A DNA stretch of 64,000 bases from contig DATJWA010000027.1 in assembly GCA_035501555.1 (NCBI GenBank), positions 256,156 to 320,155 of the forward strand, in the 5' to 3' direction. Position 1 is the stretch's first letter; the number at the start of each line of letters is the position of its first letter. Made by a program: the position numbers and the translations under genes. Shown in pieces: positions 43,948 to 64,000 of the stretch. Source of the stretch: Thermoplasmata archaeon (GTDB lineage: Archaea > Thermoplasmatota > Thermoplasmata > Lutacidiplasmatales > UBA184). The notes below the pieces were generated by a model. The model was given only the letters and a program-made list of their open reading frames with translations. It made no database searches and was not told the origin of the DNA.

Positions 43948-44026
43948 AGGGCAAATGCGGCCCAGTGGCCACTTTCGACCCGCGAATGAACCCGGTCTGA
44001 GTACGTGGCCAGAGCCCTCCGTGAAG

Positions 44027-47095: not shown

Positions 47096-47238
47096 AGATG
47101 GTTTCCCGGCCTCTTCCCCTACGTTGGGCCGGGCGTCCCGATCCTGATAGTTCGAAGTGGAGAATAGTTCTCAGCAGTAAGGTCCCCGGCCGGCAGGCGG
47201 GGTCCGACGAACGTTCCTCGGTGAGACATCGGCCGAAG

Positions 47239-47279
47239 ATGTCGGAGGGGGGAACTCTGGAATTGTTCAAATCCCCCAC
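47239..47279 (+). repeat. tRNA-3'-end-like hairpin repeat.
   Basis: atgtcggaggggggaactctggaattgttcaaatcccccac. Confidence 0.6.
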
Positions 47280-47414
47280 GTGAGGTCGGGGGTCGGTCGG
47301 AACCCCCCCGTACACAAGTCCATCGCTAGAAACCGGTCCGACCAGCCGGATCCAAGCCGGCCGTCGGGGAACCCGCCTAATTCGAACCCTTCTTCAAAAG
47401 GAGCGGAAGGTATG

Positions 47415-47450
47415 GGAGTTTAATCTAACTGAAGCAGCTCTCGACTCGTG
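47415..47450 (+). promoter_or_regulatory. Conserved paralog promoter block GGGAGTTTAATCTAAC upstream of cyclase D.
   Basis: Same motif and spacing. Confidence 0.6.
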
Positions 47451-49364
47451 GCCTCCACTCGGCGCCTCTCCGCCATCATGTTTACGGACATGGTTGGTTC
47501 GACGGCATCGGCCCAGGCCAACGAGGCCCAGGCCCTCAAGCTCAGGGACGAGCAGGCGGCTCTCCTCCGGCCTCTATTCGCCGTTCATCAGGGGCGCGAA
47601 GTCAAGTCGATGGGCGACGGGTTTCTCACGGAGTTCGACAGTGCGCTCCGGGCCGTTCAGTGCTCCATCGACATCCAGCAACATCTGCACGAGCGAAATT
47701 CGCAACCCGGGGTGGCCCCGATTCGGCTTCGAATCGGGATCCACCTCGGCGATGTCGAGCAGCGCGAGAGCGACATTTTTGGAGACGCGGTGAACATCGC
47801 CTCACGAATCGAATCGATCGCCGAGCCCAGCGGCATTTGTGTCTCAGGAGCCGTCCACGAGCAGGTACGGAACAAGATTGCCGACCGGTTCGAGAAGCTC
47901 CCGCCCACGCTGCTCAAGGGATTGGAACGCTCGATGGACCTGTACCGGGTTCTCCTGCCCTGGACCCGTGGCGAAGCCCCCGTGAGGGGCACCGGACCTC
48001 CACGACTGGCGGTGCTTCCGTTCTCCAACATCAGCCCGGACCTGAAGGACGAGTACTTCGCAGACGGTCTTACGGAGGAACTGATCACCGTCCTCTCGCA
48101 GTTGCGCGAGATTCGAGTCATTGCCCGAACCTCAGTCGCCCAGTACAAATCGACGAACAAGTCGGCGGCCCAGATCGGGGCCGAGTTGGGCGTCGATGCT
48201 ATTTTGGAGGGCAGCGTCAGAAAGTCAGGGGATGATCTCCGTATCACCGTCCAACTCATCGATGGTGCGACGCAGGAGCACACGTGGGCGAACACCTACG
48301 ACCGGAAGCTCGAGAAAGTATTCGCGGTCCAGGCAGAGATTGCGAAGCAGGTGGCGGAAGGGCTCAGAATCAAGCTTCGGCCAACGGAGACGGCGCGGCT
48401 CGAGAGTCAATCCCCGGTGATGCCGGATTCCTACCTCGCGTATCTTAGAGGCCGTTCCCTACTGGTATCACAATGGTCCGACAAGGGCTTCAGAGCGGCA
48501 AAACAACACTTCGAGGTTGCGCTTTCAATAGACGAGACAAACGCGAGGGCCCACTCCGGATTGGCGGATGCACTCAAGCATATCGCGTGGGCTGAGAACG
48601 AACCTCTAACCAACGACCAGGAGTCCGTGGTTAGGGACCACGTCGCTCGGGCCCTGCAACTCGACCCCAACCTTGCGGAGGCTCACTGCTCGCTCGGACT
48701 GATTCTCTGGGACGAGAATGATCACCGGGGCGCCGCGAAGGAGATGGAACTCGCCCTGTCCATCAATCCGAGTTTGTCCTACGCGCACTTCGAGTACGCG
48801 CTCATCCTCCTGTGCTTTGCCCGATCCGAGGACGGCCTCCGAGAGCTCGCGCTGGCCGAGGAACTGGACCCGATCTCGGTGCAGTACGCGGATTGGCACG
48901 CGTTTTTGCTCATCATGCTTCGAAGACTCGACGAGGCGGCGGTCAGACTGGACAGGCTCAAGGAGTTGGATAAAGCCGGCATCGTCTACAGCGGCACACT
49001 CAGCTACTATCTGTGGGCGAGGGGCGATTTCGATGGCGCCCTTCAGGCATGTGACCGACTCGCAGAGCTCAGAGGCGAACCCGCATGGACCGGCCGCGTC
49101 ATGTCACTTTCGAGTATGGGCAAGAAAGAGGAGGCTTGGAAGTTAATCCGGGAAGCGGAAGCATTGCCGAAAAAGCCACTCCTAGAAGAACGGGCGATGT
49201 GGCGGGCGTTTGTCGGTGATGTCGATGGCTGTTTCCAGTACCTGGATGAGTCATTCGAGAGTCACCAGCTCACCACTCAGGTCTGGATGTTCGAACCGGC
49301 GCTCGGACCAATTCGGTCTGACCCCAGGTTCGCTCAACTCCTGAAGAAGCTGAATCTCGCGTAA
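47448..49364 (+). CDS. Class III cyclase (CHD) – TolB-N-like – TPR protein (paralog D, C-terminal subtype 2).
   Basis: GTG start. Cyclase motifs. LAVLPFSNISPDLKDEYFADGLTEE segment. TPR repeats. Confidence 0.9.
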   Translation: MASTRRLSAIMFTDMVGSTASAQANEAQALKLRDEQAALLRPLFAVHQGREVKSMGDGFLTEFDSALRAVQCSIDIQQHLHERNSQPGVAPIRLRIGIHLGDVEQRESDIFGDAVNIASRIESIAEPSGICVSGAVHEQVRNKIADRFEKLPPTLLKGLERSMDLYRVLLPWTRGEAPVRGTGPPRLAVLPFSNISPDLKDEYFADGLTEELITVLSQLREIRVIARTSVAQYKSTNKSAAQIGAELGVDAILEGSVRKSGDDLRITVQLIDGATQEHTWANTYDRKLEKVFAVQAEIAKQVAEGLRIKLRPTETARLESQSPVMPDSYLAYLRGRSLLVSQWSDKGFRAAKQHFEVALSIDETNARAHSGLADALKHIAWAENEPLTNDQESVVRDHVARALQLDPNLAEAHCSLGLILWDENDHRGAAKEMELALSINPSLSYAHFEYALILLCFARSEDGLRELALAEELDPISVQYADWHAFLLIMLRRLDEAAVRLDRLKELDKAGIVYSGTLSYYLWARGDFDGALQACDRLAELRGEPAWTGRVMSLSSMGKKEEAWKLIREAEALPKKPLLEERAMWRAFVGDVDGCFQYLDESFESHQLTTQVWMFEPALGPIRSDPRFAQLLKKLNLA

Positions 49365-49403: not shown

Positions 49404-49440
49404 TTCGGAAGGGGGGTTGACGGGTTCAAATCCCCGCCAG
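49404..49440 (+). repeat. Divergent T-arm-like element (GGGTTCAAATCCCCGCC) after a T-run. It lies between convergent genes D and H.
   Basis: ctttttcggaaggggggttgacgggttcaaatccccgccagagagg. It carries a GTTCAAATCC T-loop signature on the plus strand. Confidence 0.4.
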
Positions 49441-49461: not shown

Positions 49462-50814
49462 TCACCGCGATACCGCGAGGAACGTCTCCCAGTTCCCCTC
49501 CACGCCCTTGAACCGGCGGGACCCCCGTTCCTCAAACCGCACCTCTGAGCCTACGGATAGGTCACGGACAGTTCGTGAGGTCACGATCTCGCCGCCGCCA
49601 GCGGAATCGCAGATCCGGGACGCAAGGTGGACCGCCATCCCGACGACGTCGTTGTCTGCCACGAGGCACTCACCGGTGTGAACTCCGGCCCGAAGCTCGA
49701 GGCCCCGTTGTTTCGCCTGGTCCCGAGCGGATTGTGCGAAGCGTACCGCCCGGGTCGGTCCGTCGAAGGTGGCGAGGAACCCATCGCCAGTCGTCTTCAC
49801 CAATCGACCCCGGAAGCGGGTGATTTCGGCGCGGGACCCAGCGAGGAAGGACTCCAGAATCTCCCTCCAACTGTGATCACCCAGCCGGGAGGCGAGTCGG
49901 GTCGAATCGACGATGTCGGCGAAGACTACGGTCTTGAGTACTCGGTCCTCGTCAGGCAAACCCGATGGTAGGCTGGTGAGGAACGATTTCTGGGCACGGA
50001 GGGAGGCGGCGCTCGCTTCGGGGTTCGCCCAGAAGAAGTGGTCTCGTCCCGGAATGGAAACAATCCGAGACCCAGCCACGCGGGAGGCGACGTAATCCGC
50101 GTTCTCCTCACGAACGGCCCTGTCGCCCGGGCATTTCAGGATGAGCGTCGGGACGTGAACCGCCGGAAGAGTCGCCCGAACGTCAATTTCAAGGTTCATC
50201 CGCGCGAGGGAGGCGGCCGCGGAGGGCGACGAACCAAACCGGATCACCCGCCCGTACCATCGTTTGAAATCGGGATCCGCTACCCGGCTCGGGGCCTGTG
50301 TCGACAAAAGTCGGTCGATGTGCGGAGGCGTCCCCCAATCCTCGTCCGAAAGTCGGATGGACTCCTCCACCTCTTCGCGCGTGGGGGCGAAGGCGAAGTC
50401 GGGAGCCCACGCACCTCGGACCGTCGGAGCGATAAGGATGAGGCCCAAGGTTCGTTCCGGGTAGGTCGCCGCGAACAGGAGGGCCATCGCCGCCGTGTCG
50501 GTGGCTCCAAAAATCACCGCACGATGACTCTTCGCCGCGTCCATGACGGCCCGGAGATCATCCATCCGGTCCTCGAGCGTCGGCGTCCCAACCGCTCGGT
50601 CCGAGAGACCCACACCGCGCTTGTCCCACAGGATCACCCGGGCGGCGCTCCCTAGATCCCGGAAGTATCCCGCGACCGCTGGCTGCTCCCAGACGAGTTC
50701 GAGATGAGAGATTGCCGTACGACCGTAGACCAGGTCGACGGGACCCGCCCCGAACACCTCGTAGGCGATGCGAAGGTCGCCGCTACGGGCGTACCGGACT
50801 TCGGGAACCTCCAT
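49462..50814 (-). CDS. Alpha/beta-hydrolase – class III cyclase fusion (LipJ/Rv1900c-like, paralog H).
   Basis: N-terminal alpha/beta-hydrolase fold. C-terminal CHD (FADIVDSTRLASRLGD…KTTGDGFLATF…GECLVADNDVVGMAVHLASRI). Confidence 0.9.
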   Translation of the reverse strand: MEVPEVRYARSGDLRIAYEVFGAGPVDLVYGRTAISHLELVWEQPAVAGYFRDLGSAARVILWDKRGVGLSDRAVGTPTLEDRMDDLRAVMDAAKSHRAVIFGATDTAAMALLFAATYPERTLGLILIAPTVRGAWAPDFAFAPTREEVEESIRLSDEDWGTPPHIDRLLSTQAPSRVADPDFKRWYGRVIRFGSSPSAAASLARMNLEIDVRATLPAVHVPTLILKCPGDRAVREENADYVASRVAGSRIVSIPGRDHFFWANPEASAASLRAQKSFLTSLPSGLPDEDRVLKTVVFADIVDSTRLASRLGDHSWREILESFLAGSRAEITRFRGRLVKTTGDGFLATFDGPTRAVRFAQSARDQAKQRGLELRAGVHTGECLVADNDVVGMAVHLASRICDSAGGGEIVTSRTVRDLSVGSEVRFEERGSRRFKGVEGNWETFLAVSR

Positions 50815-50925
50815 CGCCCACCGGCCGGAATCGAACGCGAACGGGGTATATCGACTGTCCGGGGGGCCGATGCGAAGAGACCTTTGGCCCCCGTGCGAAG
50901 ACGACCCCTCGGAAATCTCAAAAGA

Positions 50926-50964
50926 GGTCGGAGGGGGGAACTCCCAGTTTGTTCAAGTCCCCCA
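50926..50964 (+). repeat. tRNA-3'-end-like hairpin repeat.
   Basis: ggtcggaggggggaactcccagtttgttcaagtcccccac. Confidence 0.55.
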
Positions 50965-50975
50965 CCGAAGTACGG

Positions 50976-52197: not shown

Positions 52198-54660
52198 ATG
52201 CGAGACCCCGTGTGGTTCTCGGTTCTCCATCGCCGGACCTTGTCGCGCCCGTCCAAACGCATGAGGCCCGCAGGTCAACAGTCAGACTCGGCGAACGGCA
52301 CGACTTCGTCCACGACCCGCATTGAAGGGATCTCTTCCCCGTCGGCCCCGCCCGCCGATATCGGTGTCCCGACCCGGACGGTCGGCCGGGAAGGCGAAAT
52401 CCGCACAATCGCCGACTTTCTTGGACGAATTGAAAGGAGGTCGGAGAGCGTTCTTCTCTTCTCCGGAGAAGCCGGGGTCGGTAAAACACGTCTCCTCCGT
52501 GAGGCCGAGTCGAGGGCCACGAAGATCGGAATGACGGTCCTCTCGGTCGATTGTGGTGCCCTGGACCACGGGGTCGCCTACGGTCCATGGGTCGAATTGC
52601 TTCGGCACTACCTTGAAACGACTCCTCGGAAGCAGGCGTATTCAACGGTCCAGCCGCACCTGCGTGCCCTCAGCTCCATCGCGCCGGGGTTGAACGACCT
52701 TGTGTGGCTCTTTGACCCGAGCCACAGGTCCGGCACCGACGGGCGTGAGACTCGGGTCGAACCGATTGGCCGTTTCTTTGTCGCCATCGCGGACGAACGT
52801 CCGCTGCTGCTCGCGATAGACGACCTCGGCAGTGCGGACAACTCTTCGCTAGAGCTCTTGGGGAGTGTCGCGCGCTTGGGTCGACCGTTCCCCCTCGGAA
52901 TCGTGGGCACCTATCGCGACACGCAACCGGAGGAGAACAAACCGCTGCGGCACCTGCTGTCGAACCTCGAGAGTCAGAAGTCTTGCACCACCGTGACTGT
53001 CCGCCCCCTCGACCGAGATCACCTGGGTGTGCTCATCGGCGAGGTGCTCCAAACGAAGGAGGTCCCGACCGCGTTGCGGGATGCCGTGTTCGAGAAGTCC
53101 CGAGGCAACCCGTACTATGCCGCGGAGATTGCCCAATGGCTGCTGGAGGCGGGTACCCTCCGTGCGACGTCCGCGGGCCGGTCGTGGGACTCGGACTCGA
53201 AATTGGAGCTACCCGCCCCCTTCGAGCGAGCGATCGAGGTCCGTCTCGGTCGGACCCCGAGCCTGAACCTCCCCGTCGGGAGTATCCAGGATCGACTTGC
53301 GATTCTGCCGTTTGCCAACCTCAGTCCGGACCCGGGTGACGCGTATTTCGCCGACGGACTCACCGAGGAGATGATTGGCGTGGTCTCCCAGGTGAAGGGG
53401 TTCCAGGTGATTGCCCGCACCTCAGTGATGCCCTACAAATCTGCCTCGAAAGGGGTCTTCCAGATCGGGCTCGAACTGGGCGTCTCATCGATCCTCGAAG
53501 GAAGCGTTCGTCGAGCCGGAGATCGGTTGCGGATCGCGGTGCAATTGATCGACGTACGATCCCAGGCCCACCTCTGGGCGCACACCTTCGAGCGCGCGCT
53601 CGGCGACGTGTTTGCCGTGCAGTCCGAGATCGCGAGAAAGGTGGCGAATGCACTCAAGATCAAATTGGGCCCGGCCGAGAGGAGTCGGCTGGAATCCAGA
53701 CGCTCGGTGCGGCCGGATTCGTACCTTGCCTACCTGAGGGGCCGGATCTCGTTGCATACCCATACCCAGGCATCCTTGGAGACCGCGAAGAACGAATTCG
53801 AACGGTCCATTTCGCTCGACCCGATGAACGCCGCCGCTCATGCCGGACTCGCCGCTGTAACGGAGATGATAGCGTGGTGGTTCCCAGGACCAGGCTTCAA
53901 GAGATCGACCCGAGGGAGCCGGGGATTGGCGGCGCGGGCGCTCGACCTCGACCCAGACCTCGCGGAGGCGCATGAGGCGGTCGCGTTGGTCCTGGAAGCC
54001 GAGTACGACTATCGGGGGGCGGAAAAGGAATTCAAGTTGGCTCTGGAGCTGAGTCCGAGCTACTCGATCGCGCACCATAACTACGCCTCTATTCTGGAGG
54101 AGATGGGACGGCCCGAAGAAGCGCTCTTGCAGTACTCACTCGCCGAGGGAGCCGACCCTCTTTGGGCGAGGAACCTCTTCTGGTTCGCCACCTTACTCGT
54201 CTGGTCGGGTCGGCCGGACGAAGCTCTCGTGAAGATCCGAGCGCTCGGCCAACTGGAACCCGACGGGGTGGACTATCACGCCGCCCTCACCACCTACTAC
54301 CTTTCCCAGTCCAAACCCCAGGAAGCTCTCGACGAGCTTCGTAAGGTCGTCGAGCTGGAGCCAGAACCTCGTCGCAAGTCGGTCTATCGGGCTCGCTACC
54401 TCGCGCTTTCGGGCAGGAAGAAGGAGGCCGAGGCCCAACTTCGGCACGAAGAATCGTTGCCCGTAGTTGGCGTCATCACGTGGGCCATCGCGCTGACGTA
54501 CGCCGAAATGGGGAACCTCGATGACTGTTTTCGTCTGATGGAGCAGGCCGCCGACGCTGGGTACGTTGCGTTCCAGCAACCGAGGCTGAATCCGATTTAC
54601 GAAAACGTCCGAACCGACCCGAGACTCCAGCAATTGTTAGCAAAGTTGGGCATCCCATGA
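52198..54660 (+). CDS. STAND/AAA ATPase – TolB-N-like – TPR protein lacking the cyclase domain (paralog E).
   Basis: Walker A FSGEAGVGKTRL. ILPFANLSPDPGDAYFADGLTEE segment. TPR repeats. No CHD and no TTAATCTAAC promoter block. Start uncertain: 52198 or 52261. Confidence 0.8.
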   Translation: MRDPVWFSVLHRRTLSRPSKRMRPAGQQSDSANGTTSSTTRIEGISSPSAPPADIGVPTRTVGREGEIRTIADFLGRIERRSESVLLFSGEAGVGKTRLLREAESRATKIGMTVLSVDCGALDHGVAYGPWVELLRHYLETTPRKQAYSTVQPHLRALSSIAPGLNDLVWLFDPSHRSGTDGRETRVEPIGRFFVAIADERPLLLAIDDLGSADNSSLELLGSVARLGRPFPLGIVGTYRDTQPEENKPLRHLLSNLESQKSCTTVTVRPLDRDHLGVLIGEVLQTKEVPTALRDAVFEKSRGNPYYAAEIAQWLLEAGTLRATSAGRSWDSDSKLELPAPFERAIEVRLGRTPSLNLPVGSIQDRLAILPFANLSPDPGDAYFADGLTEEMIGVVSQVKGFQVIARTSVMPYKSASKGVFQIGLELGVSSILEGSVRRAGDRLRIAVQLIDVRSQAHLWAHTFERALGDVFAVQSEIARKVANALKIKLGPAERSRLESRRSVRPDSYLAYLRGRISLHTHTQASLETAKNEFERSISLDPMNAAAHAGLAAVTEMIAWWFPGPGFKRSTRGSRGLAARALDLDPDLAEAHEAVALVLEAEYDYRGAEKEFKLALELSPSYSIAHHNYASILEEMGRPEEALLQYSLAEGADPLWARNLFWFATLLVWSGRPDEALVKIRALGQLEPDGVDYHAALTTYYLSQSKPQEALDELRKVVELEPEPRRKSVYRARYLALSGRKKEAEAQLRHEESLPVVGVITWAIALTYAEMGNLDDCFRLMEQAADAGYVAFQQPRLNPIYENVRTDPRLQQLLAKLGIP

Positions 54661-54745
54661 CAATCCGTTGATTTCGACCTCCCGTCGACGGTGAACCCCC
54701 CCTTTCGGAGAGGAGACCGGGATTGCGAAGGGCGTTGCACGATGA

Positions 54746-54786
54746 ATGTCGGAGGGGGACATTACTGAATTGTTCATATCCCCGAC
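54746..54786 (+). repeat. tRNA-3'-end-like hairpin repeat.
   Basis: atgtcggagggggacattactgaattgttcatatccccgac. Confidence 0.65.
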
Positions 54787-54927
54787 TTGGGGGTCAGCGA
54801 GAAAGCACGATTGCGAGACCACCGGTAGTCGGGTTATCGCGGTTACCGGACTACCCGGAGCGGCTGGGCTCCCGACACGCCAGATGCCCACAGTCGACCA
54901 GGTAAATCGCGGGCTTTTCCGCGAACC

Positions 54928-54963
54928 GGGGCTTAATCTAACGAATACCGTTTCCGGGCCATG
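54928..54963 (+). promoter_or_regulatory. Conserved paralog promoter block GGGGCTTAATCTAAC upstream of cyclase F.
   Basis: Same motif and spacing. This gene uses an ATG start. Confidence 0.6.
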
Positions 54964-56892
54964 GCCTCCAGTCGCCGACTCGCCGCCATCATGTTCACGG
55001 ACATGGTCGGCTCCACGGCTTCAGCGCAGGCCAATGAGGCAAGGGCCCTCCGGTTGCGGGACGAGCAGGCCGGACTGGTCCGTCCCCTCTTCGCCGCCCA
55101 TCAAGGGCGCGAAGTCAAGTCAATGGGCGATGGCTTCCTAGCCGAGTTCGATAGCGCACTCCGAGCCGTGCAGTGTGCGATTGACATCCAACAGCATTTG
55201 CACGAACGGAATTCCCAGCCAGGCGTGGCACCGATTCAACTTCGTATTGGAGTTCATTTGGGGGACGTCGAAGAACGCGAGCGCGACATCTTCGGCGACG
55301 CAGTCAACATCGCCTCACGCATCGAGCCGCTCGCGCCCCCCGGAGGCGTCTGCATCTCGGGAGAGGTATCCAGTCAGATCAGAAACAAGATCCCGAACCG
55401 GCTCGAGAAACTGCCGCCGACGGCGCTGAAGGGGTTGCAGGCATCGATCGACATCTATCAAGTGGTATTGCCTTGGACGGAAGCGGGCGGCGCTGGGTTG
55501 TCCGAAGTCAATCGGAACCGGATCGCGATCCTTCCCCTCGCCAACTTCAGTCAAGCCGCCGGCGACGAGTACTTCGCGGACGGGATGACAGACGAGATCA
55601 TTTCGACGGTGTCAGGGATCAGCGGCCTCAGCGTGATCTCGCGGACATCTGTAATGAGATACAAACAGACCTCCAAGAGCATGACCGAGATCGGACGCGA
55701 ACTAAAGGCAGGAAAGCTCCTGGAAGGGAGCGTTCGGAAGTCCGGAAATCGGGTGCGGATCACCGTCCAACTGATCGACGCCGAGAGCGACGCCCATCTC
55801 TGGGCCCAGAGCTACGACGGGAGCATCGACGACGTCTTCGAGACCCAGTCCGAAATCGCTCGCAAGATTGCAGAGGCGCTGAAGCTACCCTCGCCTCGGG
55901 GCGGAGGCCGGGCTGAGAGTCCTGAGGTCTACCCGCTCTGCCTCCAGGCCCGCACATTGTGGCATAAGTTCACCCGCGAAGCGAACGAGCAGGCGATGCT
56001 CCTGTTGGAAGGCGCCCTAAAGATCGATCCCGAGTCCGCTCGGGCGACGGCCGGGCTCGCGGATTGTTACGTTACCGCAGCTAACGCCGATTGGGTTGAG
56101 AAGGACGAAGGTTACGGCAAAGCTAGAACGCTGGCCAGACGTGCGCTCGAGCAGGACGCCTCGCTGCCCGAGGCCCATTTCGCCCTAGGCCATGTGTTGA
56201 TAGTGGACGACTACCCCGCAGCCGAGGCCGAACTCAAAAAAGCGCTCACGCTGAACCCCAGTCACGCGGACGCCCACGAGTGGTACGCGGAAATCCTGCG
56301 AGGCATGGGTCGAGTGGCTGAGGCGACGCGGGAAGTCGAGAGGGCCCTCGAACTGGACCCGCTCCCGCCCAGTCGGGCGTTTTTCTTGGCGACCCAATAC
56401 TACTTCGAAGGGCGTAATGACGAGGCGATCGCAGTCTGCAACAAGATCATCCAGACGGAGCCGGGGTATGCCTGGGCGTATGCCGGGCGGGCCGTGCTGA
56501 CTTCCATCAACGGAGAGAGGGAGAGAGCCTACCGGGATTTGCAAACCTACAGACGACTACAGCGGGACGAGATCGCGTACAAGAGCCTCCAGGCTCGGAT
56601 CGAAGCTCACCTGGGAAACAAGGAAGAAGCGTCACGCCTCATCGATGAGGTGCTCGCGCTCGAGGCAGCGAGTGAATCCCCGAATGCGCGAAGCGAAACT
56701 TACCAGCTATCCTTTGCGTATGCCCTCATCGATGATCGAGCGAGATTCTTTCCGTTCGTGGAAGGTCTGATCGACCACAATAAGATGGATCCCGGTGAAC
56801 TTCGGGACCCCGCGTACCAAAACATGGCGAGTGATCTTCGATTCGCATCCCTCCTCCAGAAACTCCGCAAATCCTACGGCATTTCCAACTGA
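54961..56892 (+). CDS. Class III cyclase (CHD) – TolB-N-like – TPR protein (paralog F; mosaic of a D-like CHD and an A-like C-terminus).
   Basis: The CHD is ~85% identical to paralog D. The C-terminal 450 aa are ~80% identical to paralog A. Confidence 0.9.
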   Translation: MASSRRLAAIMFTDMVGSTASAQANEARALRLRDEQAGLVRPLFAAHQGREVKSMGDGFLAEFDSALRAVQCAIDIQQHLHERNSQPGVAPIQLRIGVHLGDVEERERDIFGDAVNIASRIEPLAPPGGVCISGEVSSQIRNKIPNRLEKLPPTALKGLQASIDIYQVVLPWTEAGGAGLSEVNRNRIAILPLANFSQAAGDEYFADGMTDEIISTVSGISGLSVISRTSVMRYKQTSKSMTEIGRELKAGKLLEGSVRKSGNRVRITVQLIDAESDAHLWAQSYDGSIDDVFETQSEIARKIAEALKLPSPRGGGRAESPEVYPLCLQARTLWHKFTREANEQAMLLLEGALKIDPESARATAGLADCYVTAANADWVEKDEGYGKARTLARRALEQDASLPEAHFALGHVLIVDDYPAAEAELKKALTLNPSHADAHEWYAEILRGMGRVAEATREVERALELDPLPPSRAFFLATQYYFEGRNDEAIAVCNKIIQTEPGYAWAYAGRAVLTSINGERERAYRDLQTYRRLQRDEIAYKSLQARIEAHLGNKEEASRLIDEVLALEAASESPNARSETYQLSFAYALIDDRARFFPFVEGLIDHNKMDPGELRDPAYQNMASDLRFASLLQKLRKSYGISN

Positions 56893-56929
56893 GATCTCGT
56901 TCGGTGGTTCGGCGCCCTGGCTTGGAAGG

Positions 56930-56970
56930 GTGTCGGAGGGGGACACTACTGAATTCTTCATATCCCCGAC
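56930..56970 (+). repeat. tRNA-3'-end-like hairpin repeat.
   Basis: gtgtcggagggggacactactgaattcttcatatccccgac. Confidence 0.65.
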
Positions 56971-57114
56971 AACCCCCGTTTCTCGATGAAAGCCCGATTA
57001 CGCAACTACCTGTAGTCGGGAAAGTGCGATTGTGAGACTACACGAAGCGCTCGGCCTTCTAGGGGTTTGGATACATCAAATCAACTGGGCGGAACAAGAC
57101 CTCCGCGTTGAGCC

Positions 57115-57150
57115 GGGGCTTAATCTAACAAGTGCCGTTCCCGGGGAGTG
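57115..57150 (+). promoter_or_regulatory. Conserved paralog promoter block GGGGCTTAATCTAAC upstream of cyclase G.
   Basis: Same motif and spacing. Confidence 0.6.
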
Positions 57151-59073
57151 GCCGCGACCCGCCGCCTTGCCGCCATCATGTTCACCGACACAGTCGGCTA
57201 CACCGCCTCCGCGCAGGCGGACGAGGGCCGAACGCTCGACCTGCTCCGACAGCAGGCGGAGCTGGTTCGTCCGCTCCTGGTGGTCCACCAGGGCCGAGAG
57301 ATCAAGACAACCGGGGACGGTTTCCTGGTCGAGTTCGACAGCGCACTCAAGGCTACCCAGTGTGCGGTGAGCATTCAGCGACGAATCTACGAGCGAAACT
57401 CCGAAGGCGGCCTCGCCCCGATCCAGATCCGGATCGGCATCCACTTGGGAGATGTCGTGCAGAGTGGCGCGGACATCCTCGGAGACGCGGTGAACATCGC
57501 GGCTCGGATCGAACCGATTGCCGAGCCCGGGGGCATCTGCCTGTCGGGCGCCGTTTACGAGCAAGTCCGGAACAAGGTACTCGAGAAGTTCGAGAAGCTC
57601 CCACCTGCCGCGCTCAAGGGGGTGGAGGCGCAGATCGACCTTTACCGAGTGGCGCTGCCGTGGAACGCTCTTCCGTCCTCAGCACACGACCTGGTTCCCG
57701 CGGGGATTGCCGTCCTCCCATTCTCCAACATCAGTCCGGATCCGAACGACGCCTACTTCGCAGACGGGCTGACCGAGGAATTAATCTCCGTGCTCTCTCA
57801 GTTTCGAGAGCTTCGGGTGATTGCGCGGACCTCGGTGACGCCCTACAAATCCACCTCAAAGGGGGTCAGTCAAATCGGGGCTGAGCTGGGCGTTTCCTCG
57901 ATCCTGGAAGGGAGTGTGCGAAAGGCGGGGAATCAGCTTCGGATTACTGCACAGCTGATCGATGTGCCTTCCCAGGGACACGTCTGGGCCAACTCCTACA
58001 ACCGAGAGCTCGATGATGTTTTCGTGGTCCAAGCCGAGCTCGCGAAGCAAGTCGCGGAGGCGCTGAAGATCGAACTCCAAGCCACCGAGAGGGCGAAACT
58101 CGAAGCGCGGCCGGCGGTGAGGCAGGACTCGTATCTCGCCTATCTGAAAGGACGCACGCTCCTGCACCGGTGGTCGCCGGAGACACTCAAGGCGGCGAAA
58201 GAGCAGTTCGAGCTTGCGATATCTCTGGATGGCCGAAATGCGTCGGCTTATTCAGGACTATCCGAGGTAATTCTACTGGACGGACTTTGGTTTTCTAGCA
58301 GTCCCCGAGTGGAGTGGAACGACTCAAGCCGGAAACTCGCCACTCGGGCGTTAGAAATCGACCCGAATCTCGCGGAAGCCCACTGCTCGCTCACCTTGGT
58401 TTTGTGGGACGAGTACCAATATGTGGAGTCCGAAACAGAGTTCAATCGAGCAACAGCTCTCAACCCCAGCCTCGCCGTAGCACACCGACACTACGGCCTC
58501 TTCCTGGCGGAGGAAGCTCGACCCGACGAGGCCCTACGCGAATTCGAGCTGGCCGAGGCCTTGGACCCGCTGTCAATAATCGTCCTCGCCAATCATGGCA
58601 TGTTGCTCATTCGTCTCCGGCAGCTGGACAAAGCGAGAGTCGCGATTGAGAAGCTGGGCCGGTTGGACGAATCCACCAGAGCATACCACGCCCTCCTGGG
58701 TGACTACTTCTGGGCGAAGGGCGATCACGCAGCGCAAATCGAACAACTTGACCTTACAATCAGAAGTTCGCCACAAGACCCACTGAATCCGATGTTTCGC
58801 GCGGCGGTCTATGCCTCGGCGGGCCGAGCGGACCAAGCACGGGAGTTGCTTCCCTTAGTAGAAGCGATGCCAGAAACCGCTCTCAAGTTCGCTACTCTTA
58901 TGGAAATCCACGCGGACCTGAACGACCTAGATGAATGCTTTAGGGTCATCGAGAAGGCAGTCGACGCTCACAAGTTCGGTGCGATCATATTGTTCCGGCT
59001 GGACCCCAGCTACGAGCAGGTGCGTCAGGACCCAAGGTTCAAGAGGATTCTTCAGAGGATGCACCTCGCCTGA
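57148..59073 (+). CDS. Class III cyclase (CHD) – TolB-N-like – TPR protein (paralog G, subtype 2).
   Basis: GTG start. Cyclase motifs. IAVLPFSNISPDPNDAYFADGLTEE segment. TPR repeats. Confidence 0.9.
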   Translation: MAATRRLAAIMFTDTVGYTASAQADEGRTLDLLRQQAELVRPLLVVHQGREIKTTGDGFLVEFDSALKATQCAVSIQRRIYERNSEGGLAPIQIRIGIHLGDVVQSGADILGDAVNIAARIEPIAEPGGICLSGAVYEQVRNKVLEKFEKLPPAALKGVEAQIDLYRVALPWNALPSSAHDLVPAGIAVLPFSNISPDPNDAYFADGLTEELISVLSQFRELRVIARTSVTPYKSTSKGVSQIGAELGVSSILEGSVRKAGNQLRITAQLIDVPSQGHVWANSYNRELDDVFVVQAELAKQVAEALKIELQATERAKLEARPAVRQDSYLAYLKGRTLLHRWSPETLKAAKEQFELAISLDGRNASAYSGLSEVILLDGLWFSSSPRVEWNDSSRKLATRALEIDPNLAEAHCSLTLVLWDEYQYVESETEFNRATALNPSLAVAHRHYGLFLAEEARPDEALREFELAEALDPLSIIVLANHGMLLIRLRQLDKARVAIEKLGRLDESTRAYHALLGDYFWAKGDHAAQIEQLDLTIRSSPQDPLNPMFRAAVYASAGRADQARELLPLVEAMPETALKFATLMEIHADLNDLDECFRVIEKAVDAHKFGAIILFRLDPSYEQVRQDPRFKRILQRMHLA

Positions 59074-59202
59074 CCCGCCACACTCCGCGCCTTGCCACCA
59101 GTACACAACCCACCCGTTTCCGGAGGGGCAGATGGCGGGTTCAAATCCCTTACACCCGTAGGGTCAAGTGTTGGCGTTTCTCGGCGAGAAATTGCCAAAG
59201 GA

Positions 59203-59304
59203 TGTCGGAGGGGGGATTTGAACCCCCGACCCCAGGATCTCTCCCGGGACGCCCGCGGCGGCCCGCTATGAGTCCCGTGCTCTACCAGGCTGAGCCACTC
59301 CGAC
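59203..59304 (-). tRNA. tRNA with CAU anticodon (elongator Met or Ile2). It contains a ~16-nt intron in the anticodon loop and an unusually long region before the T-arm, possibly a second intron.
   Basis: Minus-strand read: GTCGGAG-TG-GCTCAGCCTGGTAGAGC-A-CGGGA-CTCATA[GCGGGCCGCCGCGGGC]G-TCCCG-…-GGGGGTTCAAATCCCCC-CTCCGAC-A. Canonical acceptor, D-arm and T-arm are present. No CCA is encoded. Confidence 0.6.
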
Positions 59305-59330
59305 AGGGATCGGAGGCACCACGGCCGCAC

Positions 59331-60059
59331 CTACGCGCCCGCGTCCTCGTCGCCGCCCGCGGTCGCCGCGACCGGAGGCGGGCCCGACGGACCTTCCGGG
59401 GCCGGGCTCTCGGTCGGGGGCGGGCTGGTGGGGATTTCCTCCGCGATCGCCCCGAGGACCTCGGAGCGGCGGATCTCGATCTTCTTCAGCGGGTACAGGG
59501 TGCGGACCCCGTGAGCCAGGATCTTCGACAGTTCCCCCTGGATCATCTCGCGGACGAACTCGGGGGCGGTCCGCTGGGCCGCCTCCTCCCGGAGGATGTC
59601 GACCATCTTGTGCCGCAGTTCCGCGCGCAGCCGCGTCTGGAGGCGTTGCTCGCCGACCGCGACCGGCTTGAGCACGATCTCGATCCCGTCCTTCGTCGTC
59701 ACGTGGAGCGAGGTGTCGATCTTGGAGCGCTTGCGACGGGCGAGGCGTCGGACGTAATCGGAGGTAAGGTCGTGGCCGATGAACCGGGTCTCGGCGACCC
59801 CGTCCCCGCCCACGCGCTCCACGCGGAACCGCATCTTGATGTGGGCCTTGCCGGCGTCTTGGCCCCCCGAGAGCTCGGGGACCGTCATCTCGAGCGTCCG
59901 GCCGATCAACTGCTCGGGTTCGGTCGCCACGGTCTCCCCGAGGTCGGCGTGCTGGAAGAGGCCCGGCGCACGGACCTTGTAAAAGTGCTTGGCCCTCCAC
60001 TTGTCCTTGACGGTCCGGGCGACCGTGGTCTTCTTCCCGGACGTCTCCTTCTCGGCCAT
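59331..60059 (-). CDS. rps3ae: 30S ribosomal protein S3Ae (S1e family).
   Basis: Internal ATG (MAEKETSGKKTTVARTVKDKWRAKHFYKVRAP…). The upstream TTG-initiated part of the ORF is spurious. Confidence 0.85.
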   Translation of the reverse strand: MAEKETSGKKTTVARTVKDKWRAKHFYKVRAPGLFQHADLGETVATEPEQLIGRTLEMTVPELSGGQDAGKAHIKMRFRVERVGGDGVAETRFIGHDLTSDYVRRLARRKRSKIDTSLHVTTKDGIEIVLKPVAVGEQRLQTRLRAELRHKMVDILREEAAQRTAPEFVREMIQGELSKILAHGVRTLYPLKKIEIRRSEVLGAIAEEIPTSPPPTESPAPEGPSGPPPVAATAGGDEDAGA

Positions 60060-60190
60060 GGGTCGCGGGGCCGCCGAGCGGGGTACCCTACTTAACCGTG
60101 TCGAGGCGGCGGAGGTCGATTCCCTGACGGAGGCTCCCGCGGAGCGCTCCCGTTGGCAAAGTACATAACCCGAGCCCAACTCCGCGCGCC

Positions 60191-61720
60191 GTGGCGGCGG
60201 CCAAGGAACCGGCGAAGGGTGCGCGGTCGACCGCGGCCGAGCTCCGCACCCTCCATCCGGCGGCCGAGTCCCCCGGGGAGCGCTTCCGGGGCGAGGTCCT
60301 CCGCCGGCTCGACGCGGCCCGAACCCGAGGTCTTTCCCGGGACGAGGCGATCCGGTCCCTCTTCCCGCACACGGTCCTCCCGTCCCAGACCTACGAGGAC
60401 GTGGTCGCGGCGGTCGTCTCGGGCGCGCACGTCCTCTTCTTCGGCCCGTCCGGCGCGGGCAAGACGAGCCTCGCCAAGGACCTCTGGGGCCTCTTCCCGA
60501 AGGGAGCCTGGGTGGTCGACGGCTGCCCGGTCCTGGACGACCCTCTCTCGATCATCGACCCGGCATCGGCCGACCGGTTCCCCCCGTGCCCGATCTGCAC
60601 CCGTCGCTTCGCTCCGGGCGGGGACCCGGTCCGCTTCGAACCCGCGGCCGTGGACGGCACCAAGGTCCCGGCCCAGTACGTGCACCTGCACGAAGGGTTC
60701 GGGTTCGCCCGGCTCCAGGGGAGCTCGGAGGTCTTTCCCGACCATCTGACCGGCAACATCAACCTCCGAAAGCTCGAGGAGGTCGGGGACCCGATGAGCC
60801 CCCTGGTCCTCGAACCGGGCAAGCTCCTCCAGGCGAACCGGGGGTTCCTCCTCGTCGATGAGATTGGGAAGCTGCCGCTCGGCACCCAGAACGTGCTCCT
60901 CCAGGCCCTCCAGGAGGGGGTGGTCACCCCCTCGAAGTCCCGGGAGAGCTTCCCCGGCTCGTTCGTCGCGGTCGGGACCTCGAACCTCTCCGACCTCGAC
61001 AACATCAACGACCCGCTCTCCGACCGCCTCACCAGCCTGTACGTCGGGTACAACGAACGGCACGCCGACAACCGACGGATCGTCGCGCTGGCGCGGGTGG
61101 AGGAAGGGGGCGGGTGGGTCCCCGAGATCCTCACGGACGCCGGCGTGCGGGTCATCGAGGCGTGGCGGCTGAGGACGAGCGACGACAACCCGGACATCGG
61201 GGAGGTCGGCTCGAACCGCACCCTGCTCGACGTCGCCAGCCGGACCCACGCGATCGCCACGCTCGCCGAGCGGACGATCCCCGTCTCGGCCGACCTCAAG
61301 GCGGGCCTGTTGCATGCGATGCGGGGCCGACTGCGCGCCCGCAGCGGAGAGTCGTTCCGCCAGAACGAGAAGCGGGTCGGCGAGTTCATCGAGCAGTACC
61401 TGGGCCCCTCGCTGAAGCGGAGTGCGGGCGTCTACTGGTGCCGCTACTACCGGGACTCACTGAAGGAGAGCGCCACCGAGGCCGAGGCGCTGGTCGGGGA
61501 GGGTCGTCGCCTGAAGGACGACGCGGCCCTGCTCACGCAGTCGGCGGGCGACCCCACCCTCTTCCCCCGCTTCCGCTCCTTCGCCCGATTCGTGGGCGAG
61601 CGCGAGCACCCCGGGGACGGGGTCGCCCCGTTCGACGCGGCGCTGGGCGTCTTCCGCCTCCTGGAGGAGCACTCCCTCTTCTCGTGCCGCGACGAGGACG
61701 ACGACGACGCCCCCGTCTAG
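60191..61720 (+). CDS. MoxR/ChlI-like AAA+ ATPase.
   Basis: Walker A FFGPSGAGKTSL, Walker B GFLLVDEIGKLP, sensor region QNVLLQALQEGVVT. Confidence 0.8.
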   Translation: MAAAKEPAKGARSTAAELRTLHPAAESPGERFRGEVLRRLDAARTRGLSRDEAIRSLFPHTVLPSQTYEDVVAAVVSGAHVLFFGPSGAGKTSLAKDLWGLFPKGAWVVDGCPVLDDPLSIIDPASADRFPPCPICTRRFAPGGDPVRFEPAAVDGTKVPAQYVHLHEGFGFARLQGSSEVFPDHLTGNINLRKLEEVGDPMSPLVLEPGKLLQANRGFLLVDEIGKLPLGTQNVLLQALQEGVVTPSKSRESFPGSFVAVGTSNLSDLDNINDPLSDRLTSLYVGYNERHADNRRIVALARVEEGGGWVPEILTDAGVRVIEAWRLRTSDDNPDIGEVGSNRTLLDVASRTHAIATLAERTIPVSADLKAGLLHAMRGRLRARSGESFRQNEKRVGEFIEQYLGPSLKRSAGVYWCRYYRDSLKESATEAEALVGEGRRLKDDAALLTQSAGDPTLFPRFRSFARFVGEREHPGDGVAPFDAALGVFRLLEEHSLFSCRDEDDDDAPV

Positions 61721-61727
61721 CGACGCC

Positions 61728-63521
61728 GTGCGCCTTCCGGATTGCTCGACGTACGACGACGACGTCGGCTCGGACGACCTGGTGGACGCCCTCGACGCGG
61801 GCGCGCTCGTCCGGGCGCTCGCTGAGGAAGGGGTCGACGGGGCCCGGCGCCTCCTCCAGTCGAAGGCCGCGGAGGATGCCGAGCTGCGGGCCCGCCTGGA
61901 CCGGCTCCGTGCCCAGCTGCGCCGGCAGGACCAGCGCCGGGTGGGCCGGGTCAGGGCCGAGTACGACCGGCAGGTCGAGGCGCTCGACGAGGTCCGAATG
62001 CGGTCCGACGTGGAGGTGCAGCAGCGTCTCGCCGCGCTCGAAGCCCGACTCGCGGCCGCGCGCCAGGTCGACTGGTCCCGGTTGCCACCCTCCGACCTCC
62101 TGAGCGACGTTTCCGCGGCGCTCCTACTTCCGGACGCCTCGTGGAACCAGCCCCCGCCGCGGCCGGGGCTCGGGGCGCGCATCCGTGCGTTCTTTGCACG
62201 GATCGCGGCCTGGTTCCGCTCCCTCTTCTCCCGGAAGCGCGGCTCCGGAAAGGCCGCCCCTCCCGAGGGACGAACGGTCGCATTCGCCTACGCGAGCCCC
62301 GACGGTCGGGGCCTCGGGGCCTCGGAGCTCGGGGAGGCGCTCGCCCGGCTGTCGCCCGCCCAGCAGCAGGAGCTCTCAGGCAGCGTCGCGAACTCTCTCA
62401 AGGCCAAGGAGCGGGCCCTCGAGCGGGAGGCCGAGGAGAAGCGGAAGGCGGTCGAGGCCCAGCGGCGACGGCTCGAGGAGGAACGGGCCGAGGCGGCCCG
62501 CCGGGCCGCGGCCGAGACCGAGAACCGGGTGAAGGAGGGGGAGGCGCGCCGCCTCGAGCGGGAGCTCAAGGAGCGCGGGTTCGTGGCGGAGCGGGGCGAG
62601 AGCCTGGTCGTGACGTTCGGCCTCGTCCAGCGGTTCGCCCGCCTCCTGCTCGAGGAGGAGACGAAGCGCCTGCCGACCGACGTGCGGCTCTCGCTCAAGG
62701 GCGAGGGAGCGACCGGGGTCTACGAGAAGGCCCGGCTGCGCCGGGCCGAGGAGATCGCACACCTCGACGTGCCCGGCTCGCTCCTGGCCGCGCGAATGGC
62801 CGGCCAGCGCCACATCGAGGAGTCCACCAGCTACGTCTACCGGGAGGTGACGAGCGAGCGCGTCCACGTGGTGCTCGCCTTCGACCGCTCGGGCAGCATG
62901 GCCGAGGCCGGCAAGCTCGACGCGGCGAAGAAGGCCCTCCTCGCGCTCTACGTGGCGATCCGGCGCCGGTACCCGGACGCCACGATCGACCTCCTCGCGT
63001 TCGACAACGAGGTCGAGGTGCTCGACCTGGTGACGCTCTGGGAGTGCCGGGCGGGGTCGTTCACGAACACCGCGGAGGCGCTCCGGGCGGCCCACCTGCT
63101 CCTCCAAACCTCCCGGGCGAACCGGCGCGAGCTCTACCTCATCACGGATGGGTTGCCGGAGGCGTACACGGGGGAGGACGGACGGGTCCATTCTGGCCAA
63201 CTGGACCGGGCGATGGAGCAGGCGCTCGTCCGGGCGACCGAGGTCGCGACCGTGCGGCCCCTGCGCAGCACGATGATCCTCCTCAAGTCCCCGAACCCCG
63301 AGTACGAGCCGGCGGCCCGCCTCATCGCACGGACGATGGGCGGCGAGCTCGTCGTGACCGACCCGGGCCGCCTCGGGGTCGAGCTGCTGGTCCGGTGGGC
63401 CCACGGGGTCGAGACCGAACGGCGCCTGATGCCTCCGGCCCCGGCGGTCGTCGCGACCCCCCCGGGCTCCCCGGGAGGGCGGGGCCGCCGGCGGCGGGCC
63501 GACCGTCGGATGGGCGGCTGA
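61728..63521 (+). CDS. von Willebrand factor A (VWA) domain protein with N-terminal coiled-coil, partner of the MoxR ATPase.
   Basis: MIDAS motif VLAFDRSGSM. Long Glu/Arg/Ala coiled-coil. GTG start 7 nt after the ATPase stop. Confidence 0.75.
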   Translation: MRLPDCSTYDDDVGSDDLVDALDAGALVRALAEEGVDGARRLLQSKAAEDAELRARLDRLRAQLRRQDQRRVGRVRAEYDRQVEALDEVRMRSDVEVQQRLAALEARLAAARQVDWSRLPPSDLLSDVSAALLLPDASWNQPPPRPGLGARIRAFFARIAAWFRSLFSRKRGSGKAAPPEGRTVAFAYASPDGRGLGASELGEALARLSPAQQQELSGSVANSLKAKERALEREAEEKRKAVEAQRRRLEEERAEAARRAAAETENRVKEGEARRLERELKERGFVAERGESLVVTFGLVQRFARLLLEEETKRLPTDVRLSLKGEGATGVYEKARLRRAEEIAHLDVPGSLLAARMAGQRHIEESTSYVYREVTSERVHVVLAFDRSGSMAEAGKLDAAKKALLALYVAIRRRYPDATIDLLAFDNEVEVLDLVTLWECRAGSFTNTAEALRAAHLLLQTSRANRRELYLITDGLPEAYTGEDGRVHSGQLDRAMEQALVRATEVATVRPLRSTMILLKSPNPEYEPAARLIARTMGGELVVTDPGRLGVELLVRWAHGVETERRLMPPAPAVVATPPGSPGGRGRRRRADRRMGG

Positions 63522-63586
63522 CCCCCGTTGCCGCTGGCGCCGAAGGTTTATCTTGCGAACCCGCGGTCGTTCGCCCGGTGGACACC

Positions 63587-63994
63587 ATGAGCGACGGTTC
63601 AGACCAGGCCCGGTTCCGCGAACACCTGGCCCAGATGCGCCAGGCGGCCCGCGGTCTCGGCGGGGATTTCGTTTCGGAGTTCAGCGACCTCGACACGAAG
63701 ATCGAGCGGTTCGGCCACGCGACGGCCCGGGACGCGCGGGAGCTCGGCTCGGAGATCGAGGACGGGATCTCCCACCTCGGTAAGCAGATCGACGACCAGA
63801 TGCGGCGCCTTCCCGGACGGATCGCCGACGGGGCCTCCCGCGCGGGCGGGGCGACCCGGGACGCCTTCGTCGCGGTCGGTCACAAGACGAAGGAAGGAAC
63901 GAAGAACGCGCTCGCCTCGGCCGCGGGGGTCAACCGCAAGCCGATCAAGACCTGGAGCCCCCCCGAGGGGCCGGACGAGAACCGACCCTCGTAG
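63587..63994 (+). CDS. Small hypothetical protein (helical, DUF883/LEA-like composition).
   Basis: The last 135 aa of the long junk ORF 62141..63994 start at ATG 63587 (MSDGSDQARFREHLAQMRQAARGL…). TTTATCT ~34 nt upstream. Confidence 0.5.
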   Translation: MSDGSDQARFREHLAQMRQAARGLGGDFVSEFSDLDTKIERFGHATARDARELGSEIEDGISHLGKQIDDQMRRLPGRIADGASRAGGATRDAFVAVGHKTKEGTKNALASAAGVNRKPIKTWSPPEGPDENRPS

Positions 63995-64000
63995 GAGGGG

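Follow-up and report, generated by a model that had tools for sequence, protein, structure and literature searches.

A window of 64,000 nucleotides (nt) from the metagenome-assembled genome (MAG) of a high-GC Thermoplasmata archaeon carries seven co-oriented plus-strand paralogs (A-G) between 33.3 and 59.1 kb, and one of these, paralog F, is a mosaic gene. Its class III cyclase homology domain (CHD) is of the type found in paralog D and its C-terminal part is of the type found in paralog A, with one sharp breakpoint between them. Most probably (roughly 80% by our own estimate), F is an old evolutionary chimera that arose by recombination between diverged paralogs and was later kept under purifying selection. 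The proteins encoded by A, D, F and G, each of ~640 amino acids (aa), share the order of N-terminal CHD, middle domain and TPR tail. The F protein is 100% identical to a protein from the NCBI entry "MAG TPA: Thermoplasmata archaeon".

F is a mosaic with one sharp breakpoint

An earlier note on this DNA had proposed by eye that F combines a D-like cyclase domain with an A-like C-terminus, and both domain-wise and sliding-window comparison bore this out. Over residues 1-172 F shared 80% aa identity with D, and this fell to 35% in the C-terminus; to A, identity was 77% from residue 173 to the end and 55% in the cyclase domain. The figures given by eye, ~85% for D and ~80% for A, were right in substance and a few points high. 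In 40-aa windows, identity to D was 82-93% over residues 1-120 and 64-72% over residues 101-180. Within the tail, the TolB-like part reached 88-97% identity to A, the TPR part 62-79%. At the nucleotide level identity was ~78% on each side of the breakpoint, and both halves differed by >20% from A and D.

A maximum chi-square test on the A/D/F codon alignment gave chi2 = 217.7, compared with a maximum of 25.8 in 10,000 permutations (0/10,000 reached the observed value). The informative sites shared by F with D or with A were divided 123:40 to the left of the breakpoint and 100:508 to the right. This breakpoint was located at F residue ~167 (window position ~55459), and in the protein alignment the switch occurred between residues 170 and 174, right behind the LPW that closes the cyclase fold. 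When external homologues such as P0110 and P0008 were used as parents of F, chi2 values of 184-215 were obtained. No second breakpoint was significant in either of the two sub-segments (p = 0.06 and 0.03). An A-like patch or second breakpoint at residues 120-140 was considered and rejected (p = 0.06), the patch GGVCISGEV being X-type sequence. Altogether, the sliding-window, breakpoint and synonymous-divergence checks proposed in the earlier note revealed a single sharp breakpoint and not uniform divergence.

The breakpoint had been expected inside a conserved linker, but it coincides with the edge of VVLPW, the final conserved motif of the cyclase domain. Behind this motif comes a linker, TEAGGAGLSEVNRNR, that is peculiar to the A/F type; D carries an unrelated one, TRGEAPVRGTGPPR. 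The cyclase domain of PDB entry 3mr7 aligned to F residues 3-167 (E = 3.6e-28), and thus the domain boundary coincides with the junction.

Family context identifies F as the recombinant

The 120 best database homologues, which stem from other archaeal MAGs, were classified by the types of their cyclase domain and C-terminus. An A-type cyclase domain was combined with an AF-type C-terminus in 38 proteins, and a D/F/X-type cyclase domain with a D/E/G/X-type C-terminus in 34. The combination of a D/F/X-type cyclase domain with an AF-type C-terminus occurred in two proteins only, F itself and P0004. In neighbour-joining trees (Kimura distances, 200 bootstraps) of the cyclase domain, F, D and the X-type proteins formed a clade with 85.5% support and the A-type proteins one with 89.5%. 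In the tree of the C-terminal part F fell within the AF-type group, and the D/E/G-type clade, which does not include F, was supported at 100%. The phylogenetic incongruence between the two segments of F is well supported. Cross-tabulation and trees thus mark F as the recombinant and A as the canonical, widespread combination.

The same junction was used elsewhere in the family. The homologues P0004, P0002, P0003 and P0005 are chimeras as well, with junctions at F-equivalent residues 167-176 (chi2 55-249, 0/2000 permutations). P0002 (locus L091) is the cleanest of them: its tail lies in the subclade of A (94% aa identity to A, dS, the synonymous divergence per site, 0.56), its G-like cyclase domain is 55% identical to A, and nucleotide identity to A rises from 0.3-0.7 to 0.82-0.95 at window position ~33810. 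P0003 (L007) and P0005 (L005) carry G-type cyclase domains (85-86% identical to G; clade support 100%) on AF-type tails that belong to different supported subclades (83.5% and 96.5%). Since DUF1330 follows in both cases, both genes are situated at the A locus. In P0004 (L003) a D-like cyclase domain (in a clade with D, 84.5%) is joined to an AF-type tail. At least three independent cyclase-domain replacements on an AF-type backbone are needed to account for these genes, of which F and P0004 might share one. In locus L013, from a related MAG, positions 10001-14610 hold an A-type gene followed by DUF1330 and then by a gene that pairs an F-like cyclase domain (87%) with a D-like tail (59%); in an arrangement like this, F-like chimeras could result from unequal crossover at the LPW codons.

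Module exchange at the LPW junction is a standing route for re-pairing cyclase domains with sensor tails in these soil archaea. The idea of module shuffling as a diversification mechanism, put forward in the earlier note, holds in so far as it recurred at one junction in four other chimeras; it does not extend to shuffling that is ongoing within the array, nor to a tie with immunity. The mosaic of F is ordinary domain shuffling among paralogous signalling proteins.

Origin of F

According to the origin we favour, the promoter and cyclase domain of F would come from the D/F/X lineage, which usually bears a D/E/G-type sensor tail, and would have been joined behind VVLPW to a C-terminal part (linker, TolB-N-like domain, TPR tail) from the A/F lineage, whose usual cyclase domain is of the A type. 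The join would have been made by DNA recombination between two diverged paralogs, with the crossover probably guided by the common stretch of ~12-15 nt encoding V-V-L/M-P-W. The chimeras keep the donor cyclase domain through V-V-L-P-W together with the complete AF-type linker, and this motif is the only shared sequence there. Selection may have retained the join because the two modules fold independently and the cut lies precisely at their border, and F would have stayed under purifying selection afterwards. The ratio of nonsynonymous to synonymous divergence (dN/dS) was 0.07 for the cyclase domain of F and 0.19 for its C-terminus, which indicates purifying selection on both halves and hence a maintained gene.

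The strongest alternative is compatible with this origin and differs from it only in the place of the event: F could have been built in another Thermoplasmata lineage and have arrived by horizontal transfer as a single-gene unit beside the tRNA(CAU) gene, which we consider possible but rather unlikely. The 23.5-kb segment that holds F is missing from L092 and bounded by tRNA 3'-end repeats, the same co-oriented element brackets each gene in this segment, the GC content of the block is 0.63 as against 0.70-0.72, and the window contains no close parent for the halves of F. However, no integrase was present among the open reading frames (ORFs) scanned between 15 and 52 kb, the genes of the family fall below their flanks in GC content in all genomes examined, and no F orthologue was found in any other genome. 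Moreover, a deletion between the repeats in the L092 lineage explains presence and absence of the segment equally well.

Far less probable is the view of the earlier note, in which the array's own A and D gave rise to F through gene conversion or unequal crossover, either recently or as an ongoing process. Exchange within the locus is physically plausible, given that L013 has an A-type gene right beside one with an F-like cyclase domain. A, D and F are on one strand and no more than 24 kb apart, and within the window the halves of F match A and D best. The divergences, however, do not fit. For the cyclase domain, dS between F and D was ~1.8-2.0, that is, saturated, and at least 1.26 against everything sampled. 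The C-terminus of F showed a dS of 0.86 and a dN of 0.16 against A, no lower than against AF-type genes of other MAGs (P0004, P0005, P0003 and L013; dS 0.63-0.96, dN 0.15-0.17). The cyclase domain of F was closer to external X-type proteins (84-90%) and to D' of L013 (86-87%) than to D (81%), and the tail of A grouped with P0009, P0002, P0018 and P0022 in a clade with 100% support from which F was excluded. Halves of unequal age relative to A and D are not expected from one event between these two genes. Conversion now going on inside the array should leave a tract nearly identical to an in-array donor, whereas F showed ~78% nucleotide identity on both sides and dS values of 0.86 and ~1.8.

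The unequal and large divergences of the two halves from the in-window copies thus rule out recent gene conversion between A and D. Recombination did shape F, as the breakpoint and the incongruent trees demonstrate, but with synonymous sites saturated or nearly so, the claim that gene conversion is now shuffling array members fell, and so did the choice of D and A as parents. A and D of the window are not the donors of F; the donors are relatives that are unsampled or lost. The best matches to F reached 90% aa identity in the cyclase domain and 80% in the tail, and the parental lineages are of the X/D' type for the cyclase domain and of the AF type for the tail. A search with the F cyclase domain alone returned short fragments only, at no more than 86% identity, and added no donor. 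With unsampled donors, any dating applies to the separation of each half of F from its sampled relatives and not to the exchange itself. Two further approaches to the parentage were rejected. The idea that F was an X-type gene already resident here, with its 3' part overwritten on the spot, found no support, since in three other genomes such genes are singletons at a different conserved locus (X, luciferase-like oxidoreductase, metallo-beta-lactamase). The 5' flanks were not diagnostic of the parent, as paralogs and orthologues share two conserved blocks only.

Slightly less likely still is the reverse direction, with A and not F as the recombinant. An ancestral A/F gene would then have had a D/F/X-type cyclase domain, and A would have gained a foreign one later. 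The window paralogs alone do not fix the direction of the swap, but the 38 external proteins with A-type cyclase domain and AF-type tail, as against two with a D/F/X-type domain, do not agree with it. Nor does the locus: DUF1330 is found directly downstream of A-type genes in several MAGs, and is so placed in the window (35370-35651) and in L013, L014 and L092.

There is hardly any chance that F is a chimera of metagenome assembly, although the window is from a short-read MAG assembly and holds several paralogs. Two independent ENA assemblies, with contigs of 142,891 and 118,547 bp, and the NCBI MAG contig all carry identical F with the same neighbours, only ~15 nt are shared at the junction, and each half is >20% diverged from every other copy on the contig. 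P0004, a chimera of the analogous kind, likewise has two sources, an NCBI MAG and a separate Logan assembly of a sequencing run. Independent recovery and the >20% nucleotide difference of both halves show that F is not an assembly artefact. The notion that no recombination took place and that unequal rates or convergence between domains created the pattern is refuted: the cyclase domain does evolve more slowly than the tail (dN/dS 0.07 versus 0.19-0.37), but the nearest relative flips from D (80% versus 55%) to A (77% versus 35%) at one point with a chi2 of 218, at the synonymous and nucleotide levels too, and the switch was reproduced with independent external parents.

Some points weigh against an old chimera formed between diverged paralogs, or blur its details. 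Backbone support in the AF-type part of the C-terminal tree was 15-59%, which leaves the exact sister of the F tail uncertain, and the trees are based on neighbour joining with Kimura distances and not on maximum likelihood. Near saturation, dS is imprecise, and the bootstrap interval for F and D extended from 1.13 to infinity. A single origin for F and P0004 might apply. A closer donor may reside elsewhere in the same genome, beyond the window, in which case the exchange could be much younger than the measured divergences. Finally, a crossover guided by microhomology is indistinguishable from random breakage followed by selection for junctions in the linker.

Domain features and predicted function of F

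The PF00211 model (class III cyclase CHD) matched F with 53.3 bits (cut-off 21.9) and A, B, C, D and G with 52-61 bits. The solved structures closest to the F cyclase domain were 3mr7, 1ybt (Rv1900c) and 4wp9 (Ma1120). As read from the sequence and the 3mr7 alignment, all six canonical catalytic residues are kept in A, B, C, D, F and G, in the motifs FTD, VKSMGDG and RDIFGDAVNIASR, which correspond to the canonical pattern FTD, K-x-x-GDG and D-x-x-GDAVN-x-A-x-R. In class III cyclases two Asp residues bind metal, a Lys and an Asp specify the substrate, and an Asn and an Arg stabilize the transition state. From these motifs, adenylate cyclase activity is predicted for the cyclase domains of the array.

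The middle domain of A, D, F and G comprises ~125 aa. An AlphaFold2 (AF2) model of F residues 175-325 reached a pLDDT of 77.5 and a pTM of 0.72, and the best PDB matches in Foldseek were the TolB chains 4r40, 2w8b and 1c5k (~128 columns, E 8e-7 to 3e-6, TMq 0.54-0.59), followed by further matches to PelC, GNA1162 and CadC. The label "TolB-like" used in the earlier note was therefore right at the level of the fold (E ~1e-6, TMq 0.59). Pfam gave no hit to the middle domain, and TolB_N in particular no match in F at E <= 0.01. Judged by fold and size, the matched region would correspond to the N-terminal domain of TolB. Most likely, F would work as a homodimeric enzyme producing cyclic AMP (cAMP), with its activity set by the A/F-type sensor module.

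The analogy with the diversification of immune or sensor families, also drawn in the earlier note, received no backing from PADLOC, which gave weak, generic matches of PycC to the cyclase domain only (22-32 bits, explained by cyclase-domain homology). An immune function of the array was rejected on these grounds. Neighbours with Pfam hits were other cyclases, AhpC, a DsbA-like thioredoxin, a methyltransferase, AHSA1 and RibD_C, and no cyclic-nucleotide-activated effector was recognized among them; several neighbouring ORFs had no hit and could not be judged in this respect. A Pycsar system pairs a PycC-type cyclase with an adjacent effector of this kind, and such a pair was not seen among the genes with Pfam hits. 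The retention of all canonical adenylate-cyclase residues fits ordinary cAMP signalling proteins.

Organization of the array

Coordinates of the paralogs, the parts of F and the associated elements are compiled in Table 1.

Table 1 Features of the paralog array and of the F gene (window positions)
Feature	Position	Strand	Basis
Paralog A: A-type cyclase domain and AF-type C-terminus, followed by DUF1330	33300-35231	+	Domain typing; conserved synteny with DUF1330
Paralog B: cyclase domain, AAA_16 and TPR	39927-43217	+	Pfam
Paralog C: cyclase domain, AAA_16 and TPR	44060-47095	+	Pfam
Paralog D: D/F/X-type cyclase domain and D/E/G-type C-terminus	47448-49364	+	Pfam, identities
Paralog E: AAA_16 and TolB-like/TPR (D/E/G type), without cyclase domain	52198-54660	+	Pfam, identities
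Paralog F, 643 aa: class III cyclase domain (CHD), TolB-N-like domain and TPR; chimeric gene	54961-56892	+	ORF; Pfam Guanylate_cyc 8-162 and TPR families; identical protein in Thermoplasmata MAG
F cyclase module, D/F/X type, residues 1-170, VVLPW at its end	54961-55470	+	80-81% aa identity to D, 84-90% to external X-type, 55% to A
Recombination junction, residues 167-178, at the LPW codons or directly behind them	55459-55494	+	Maximum chi-square breakpoints with several parent pairs; codon view
F C-terminal module, A/F type: linker, TolB-N-like domain (~residues 182-306), TPR region	55471-56889	+	77% aa identity to A, 35% to D; AF2/Foldseek; TPR Pfam hits
Paralog G: G-type cyclase domain and D/E/G-type C-terminus	57148-59073	+	Pfam, identities
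TATA-like motif TTAATCTAAC, 28 nt upstream of the F start	54933-54942	+	6 hits in window versus 0.2 expected
Repeat upstream of F: tRNA-3'-end-like core and conserved arm	54726-54791	+	Model R1, 55.7 bits
Repeat downstream of F, upstream of G	56908-56972	+	Model R1, 57.9 bits
Further repeat copies	39702-39757, 43322-43386, 43887-43952, 47214-47284, 50901-50966	+	Repeat search
Left repeat copy bounding the 23.5-kb segment absent from L092	35664-35724	+	Alignment, repeat profile
Right repeat copy, tRNA 3' end and flank	59177-59218	+	Alignment, repeat profile
Intron-containing tRNA(CAU), Met or Ile2, 3' end facing the array and G	59203-59304	-	Rfam RF00005, 57 bits; sequence

The array ends next to a tRNA(CAU) gene, which, with its intron, was overlooked by ARAGORN and found by Rfam. 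The junction of tRNA, S3Ae and PrkA genes with adjacent cyclase genes was also present in L015, L040, L092 and L096, with one or two such genes in L015, L040 and L096. A co-oriented repeat of 45-75 nt brackets every gene of the array, in at least nine plus-strand copies. Clear copies were located at 39714, 43347, 43910, 47241, 50927, 54748 and 56932, diverged ones at 35687 and 36997, and a degenerate one near 33215. Ten matches were counted in the window versus 1.2 expected, and across related loci 39 of 40 profile matches had the orientation of the gene. The 5' part of the repeat reproduces the tRNA 3' end with its downstream flank (TTTCTCGGCGAGAAATCGGCGAAAAG-TGTCGGAGGGGG), and the 3' part is a conserved arm of ~28 nt that is not derived from the tRNA (ACAYTACTGAATTSTTCATATCCCCGAC). 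Repeat copies are 93-95% identical, while the genes are saturated at synonymous sites. The repeat was also detected in L007, L013/L027, L015, L040, L086 and L092 and on four metagenome contigs, and had no matches on viral contigs. It bounds units without cyclase genes too, namely AhpC with DsbA, and the methyltransferase with AHSA1 and RibD_C.

The repeat may serve in recombination, as an att-like site, or in regulation. A structured RNA was considered and rejected, as five predicted pairs came with one compensatory change and no Rfam family besides the tRNA itself was matched; the weak RNA-structure support points to a site acting at the DNA level. At a distance of 179-188 nt downstream of the repeat lies the motif TTAATCTAAC, found on the plus strand at 33272, 39899, 44032, 47420, 54933 and 57120, each copy 28 nt ahead of one of the start codons of A, B, C, D, F and G. 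Orthologues in other genomes have the motif at this place too. In related loci (2.6 Mb) 37 of 48 hits precede a cyclase N-terminus. The motif looks like a family-specific TATA-like promoter, implying leaderless mRNAs.

The related complete chromosome L092 (OY970259.1) aligned with ~85% nucleotide identity to window positions 33309-35697 (A, DUF1330) and 59182-63998 (tRNA, S3Ae, PrkA-like, VWA). Absent from it were the 23.5 kb at 35698-59181, which comprise the genes for AhpC, DsbA-like protein, methyltransferase, AHSA1 and RibD_C, then B, C, D, a hydrolase-CHD gene, E, F and G. A junction sequence of 32 nt is duplicated at both ends of this segment in the window. Direct repeats of a tRNA 3' end at the borders, together with presence in one genome and absence from another, are the marks of a tRNA island, and the segment has both. 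No integrase or recombinase domain was detected among the ORFs scanned between 15 and 52 kb. Two explanations of the segment remain, repeat-mediated deletion in L092 on the one hand and, on the other, tandem accretion at the tRNA or site-specific capture there, and neither affects the verdict on F. Under either, the array is shown to be a variable, repeat-bounded region.

A more speculative proposal, to which we give little credence at present, is that the array is no plain cluster of tandem duplicates but an integron-like accretion platform at the 3' end of tRNA(CAU), where single-gene units are captured, lost and reordered by site-specific recombination. A unit would consist of the conserved arm, ~185 nt, the TATA-like motif and the gene. 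The copy of 45-75 nt of tRNA 3' end and flank would serve as the site for a recombinase encoded elsewhere in the genome. F would be one cassette, and module swaps within genes would add a second layer of combinatorial diversification.

Several observations concern the surroundings of the paralogs. Between the two repeats (43347 and 43910) of the B-C spacer (43218-44059, 842 nt), neither a gene nor a fragment of the family was detected, and the spacer may be an emptied unit. Pseudogene fragments of cyclase domain or tail were not found in any of the array spacers. Forward fragments resembling a tRNA T-arm (GGGTTCAAATCCC) occur on the plus strand at 49405-49439 and ~59133-59155, downstream of D and G, and T-arm-like fragments similar to GGGTTCAAATCCC precede repeats in L040, L093, L094 and L095. 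An eighth cyclase domain is located C-terminally on an alpha/beta hydrolase (49462-50814, minus strand), an architecture like that of Rv1900c. Outside the array, an AAA_16-like gene (12812-15184, plus strand) shows 28-29% identity to B and C in their ATPase regions. The block of lowered GC content (0.63, flanks 0.70-0.72) extends over ~28000-59100 and has a sharp edge between G and the S3Ae gene. Cyclase genes are below the GC content of their flanks in other genomes too, so the low GC is partly a property of the family.

Comparison with known systems

A search with F retrieved 7,884 homologues at E <= 1e-20, mostly from MAGs of Thermoplasmata, Nitrososphaerales and Bathyarchaeia. Class III cyclases are abundant in soil archaea, yet no enzyme has been characterized for cAMP synthesis in archaea (PMC10249747). 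Archaea do contain cAMP, but those of their proteins that are annotated as class IV cyclases have diverged in function from true cyclases, and for none of the annotated cAMP phosphodiesterases has a function been demonstrated (PMC10249747). The natural chimeras described here reveal the cyclase domain and the TolB-like/TPR tail as exchangeable modules, with a permissive fusion point right behind LPW that evolution used at least three or four times. This is useful for the design of chimeric cyclases and for understanding the control that sensor tails exert on the catalytic dimer. For evolutionary biology, F is an unremarkable case of recombination between paralogs. Of all leads, the tRNA-anchored, repeat-bounded organization of the array most deserves to be followed, and it could gain importance if it reflects site-specific cassette capture.

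The multidomain class III cyclases of Actinobacteria (Rv0386/Rv1358/Rv2488c type; Rv1900c; Ma1120 of Mycobacterium avium) have the cyclase domain with its canonical residues in common with the array. In M. tuberculosis, proteins of the Rv0386/Rv1358/Rv2488c type consist of cyclase domain, NB-ARC/AAA, TPR and HTH. B and C share the layout of cyclase domain, AAA_16 and TPR with the actinobacterial cyclases, whereas A, D, F and G bear a TolB-N-like domain and TPR in place of the ATPase, the array proteins have no HTH output domain, and the host is an archaeon of the Thermoplasmata. Lineage-specific expansion of cyclases with varied domain partners is a theme of previous work (PMC2447327) and is likewise seen in this array. 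With PycC of Pycsar systems, the array cyclases share the fold; their substrate residues are of the Lys/Asp adenine type.

Shuffling in tandem families such as plant NLR clusters and bacterial antigen-variation loci involves recombination between diverged paralogs, breakpoints at module boundaries and recurrence, as in the family of F. Unlike in those systems, the event in F is ancient and fixed, both halves are under purifying selection, the neighbours in the array are not the donors, and the array has neither silent donor cassettes nor any sign of ongoing homogenization.

Integrated elements of archaea that target tRNA genes likewise show a variable segment abutting the tRNA 3' end, direct repeats at the borders and presence or absence between genomes. 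Preference for tRNA 3' ends, attB sites extending beyond the tRNA, tandem integration and loss of the integrase have been described for them (PMC8371274). The array differs in that no integrase was seen, in that its units of 0.6-3.8 kb mostly hold one gene of cellular type with its own promoter, and in the conserved arm of ~28 nt that does not belong to the tRNA.

An integron is defined by IntI, attI and promoterless attC cassettes. In the array, an IntI integrase was not detected among the ORFs scanned, the units carry their own TATA-like promoter, and the anchor is a tRNA gene and not attI. The array repeat does not resemble the R'/R'' consensus of attC, and support for a hairpin in RNA or single-stranded DNA was weak (five pairs, one compensatory change). 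What the array does have in common with integron arrays is the succession of co-oriented single-gene units with a conserved, imperfectly palindromic site between them.

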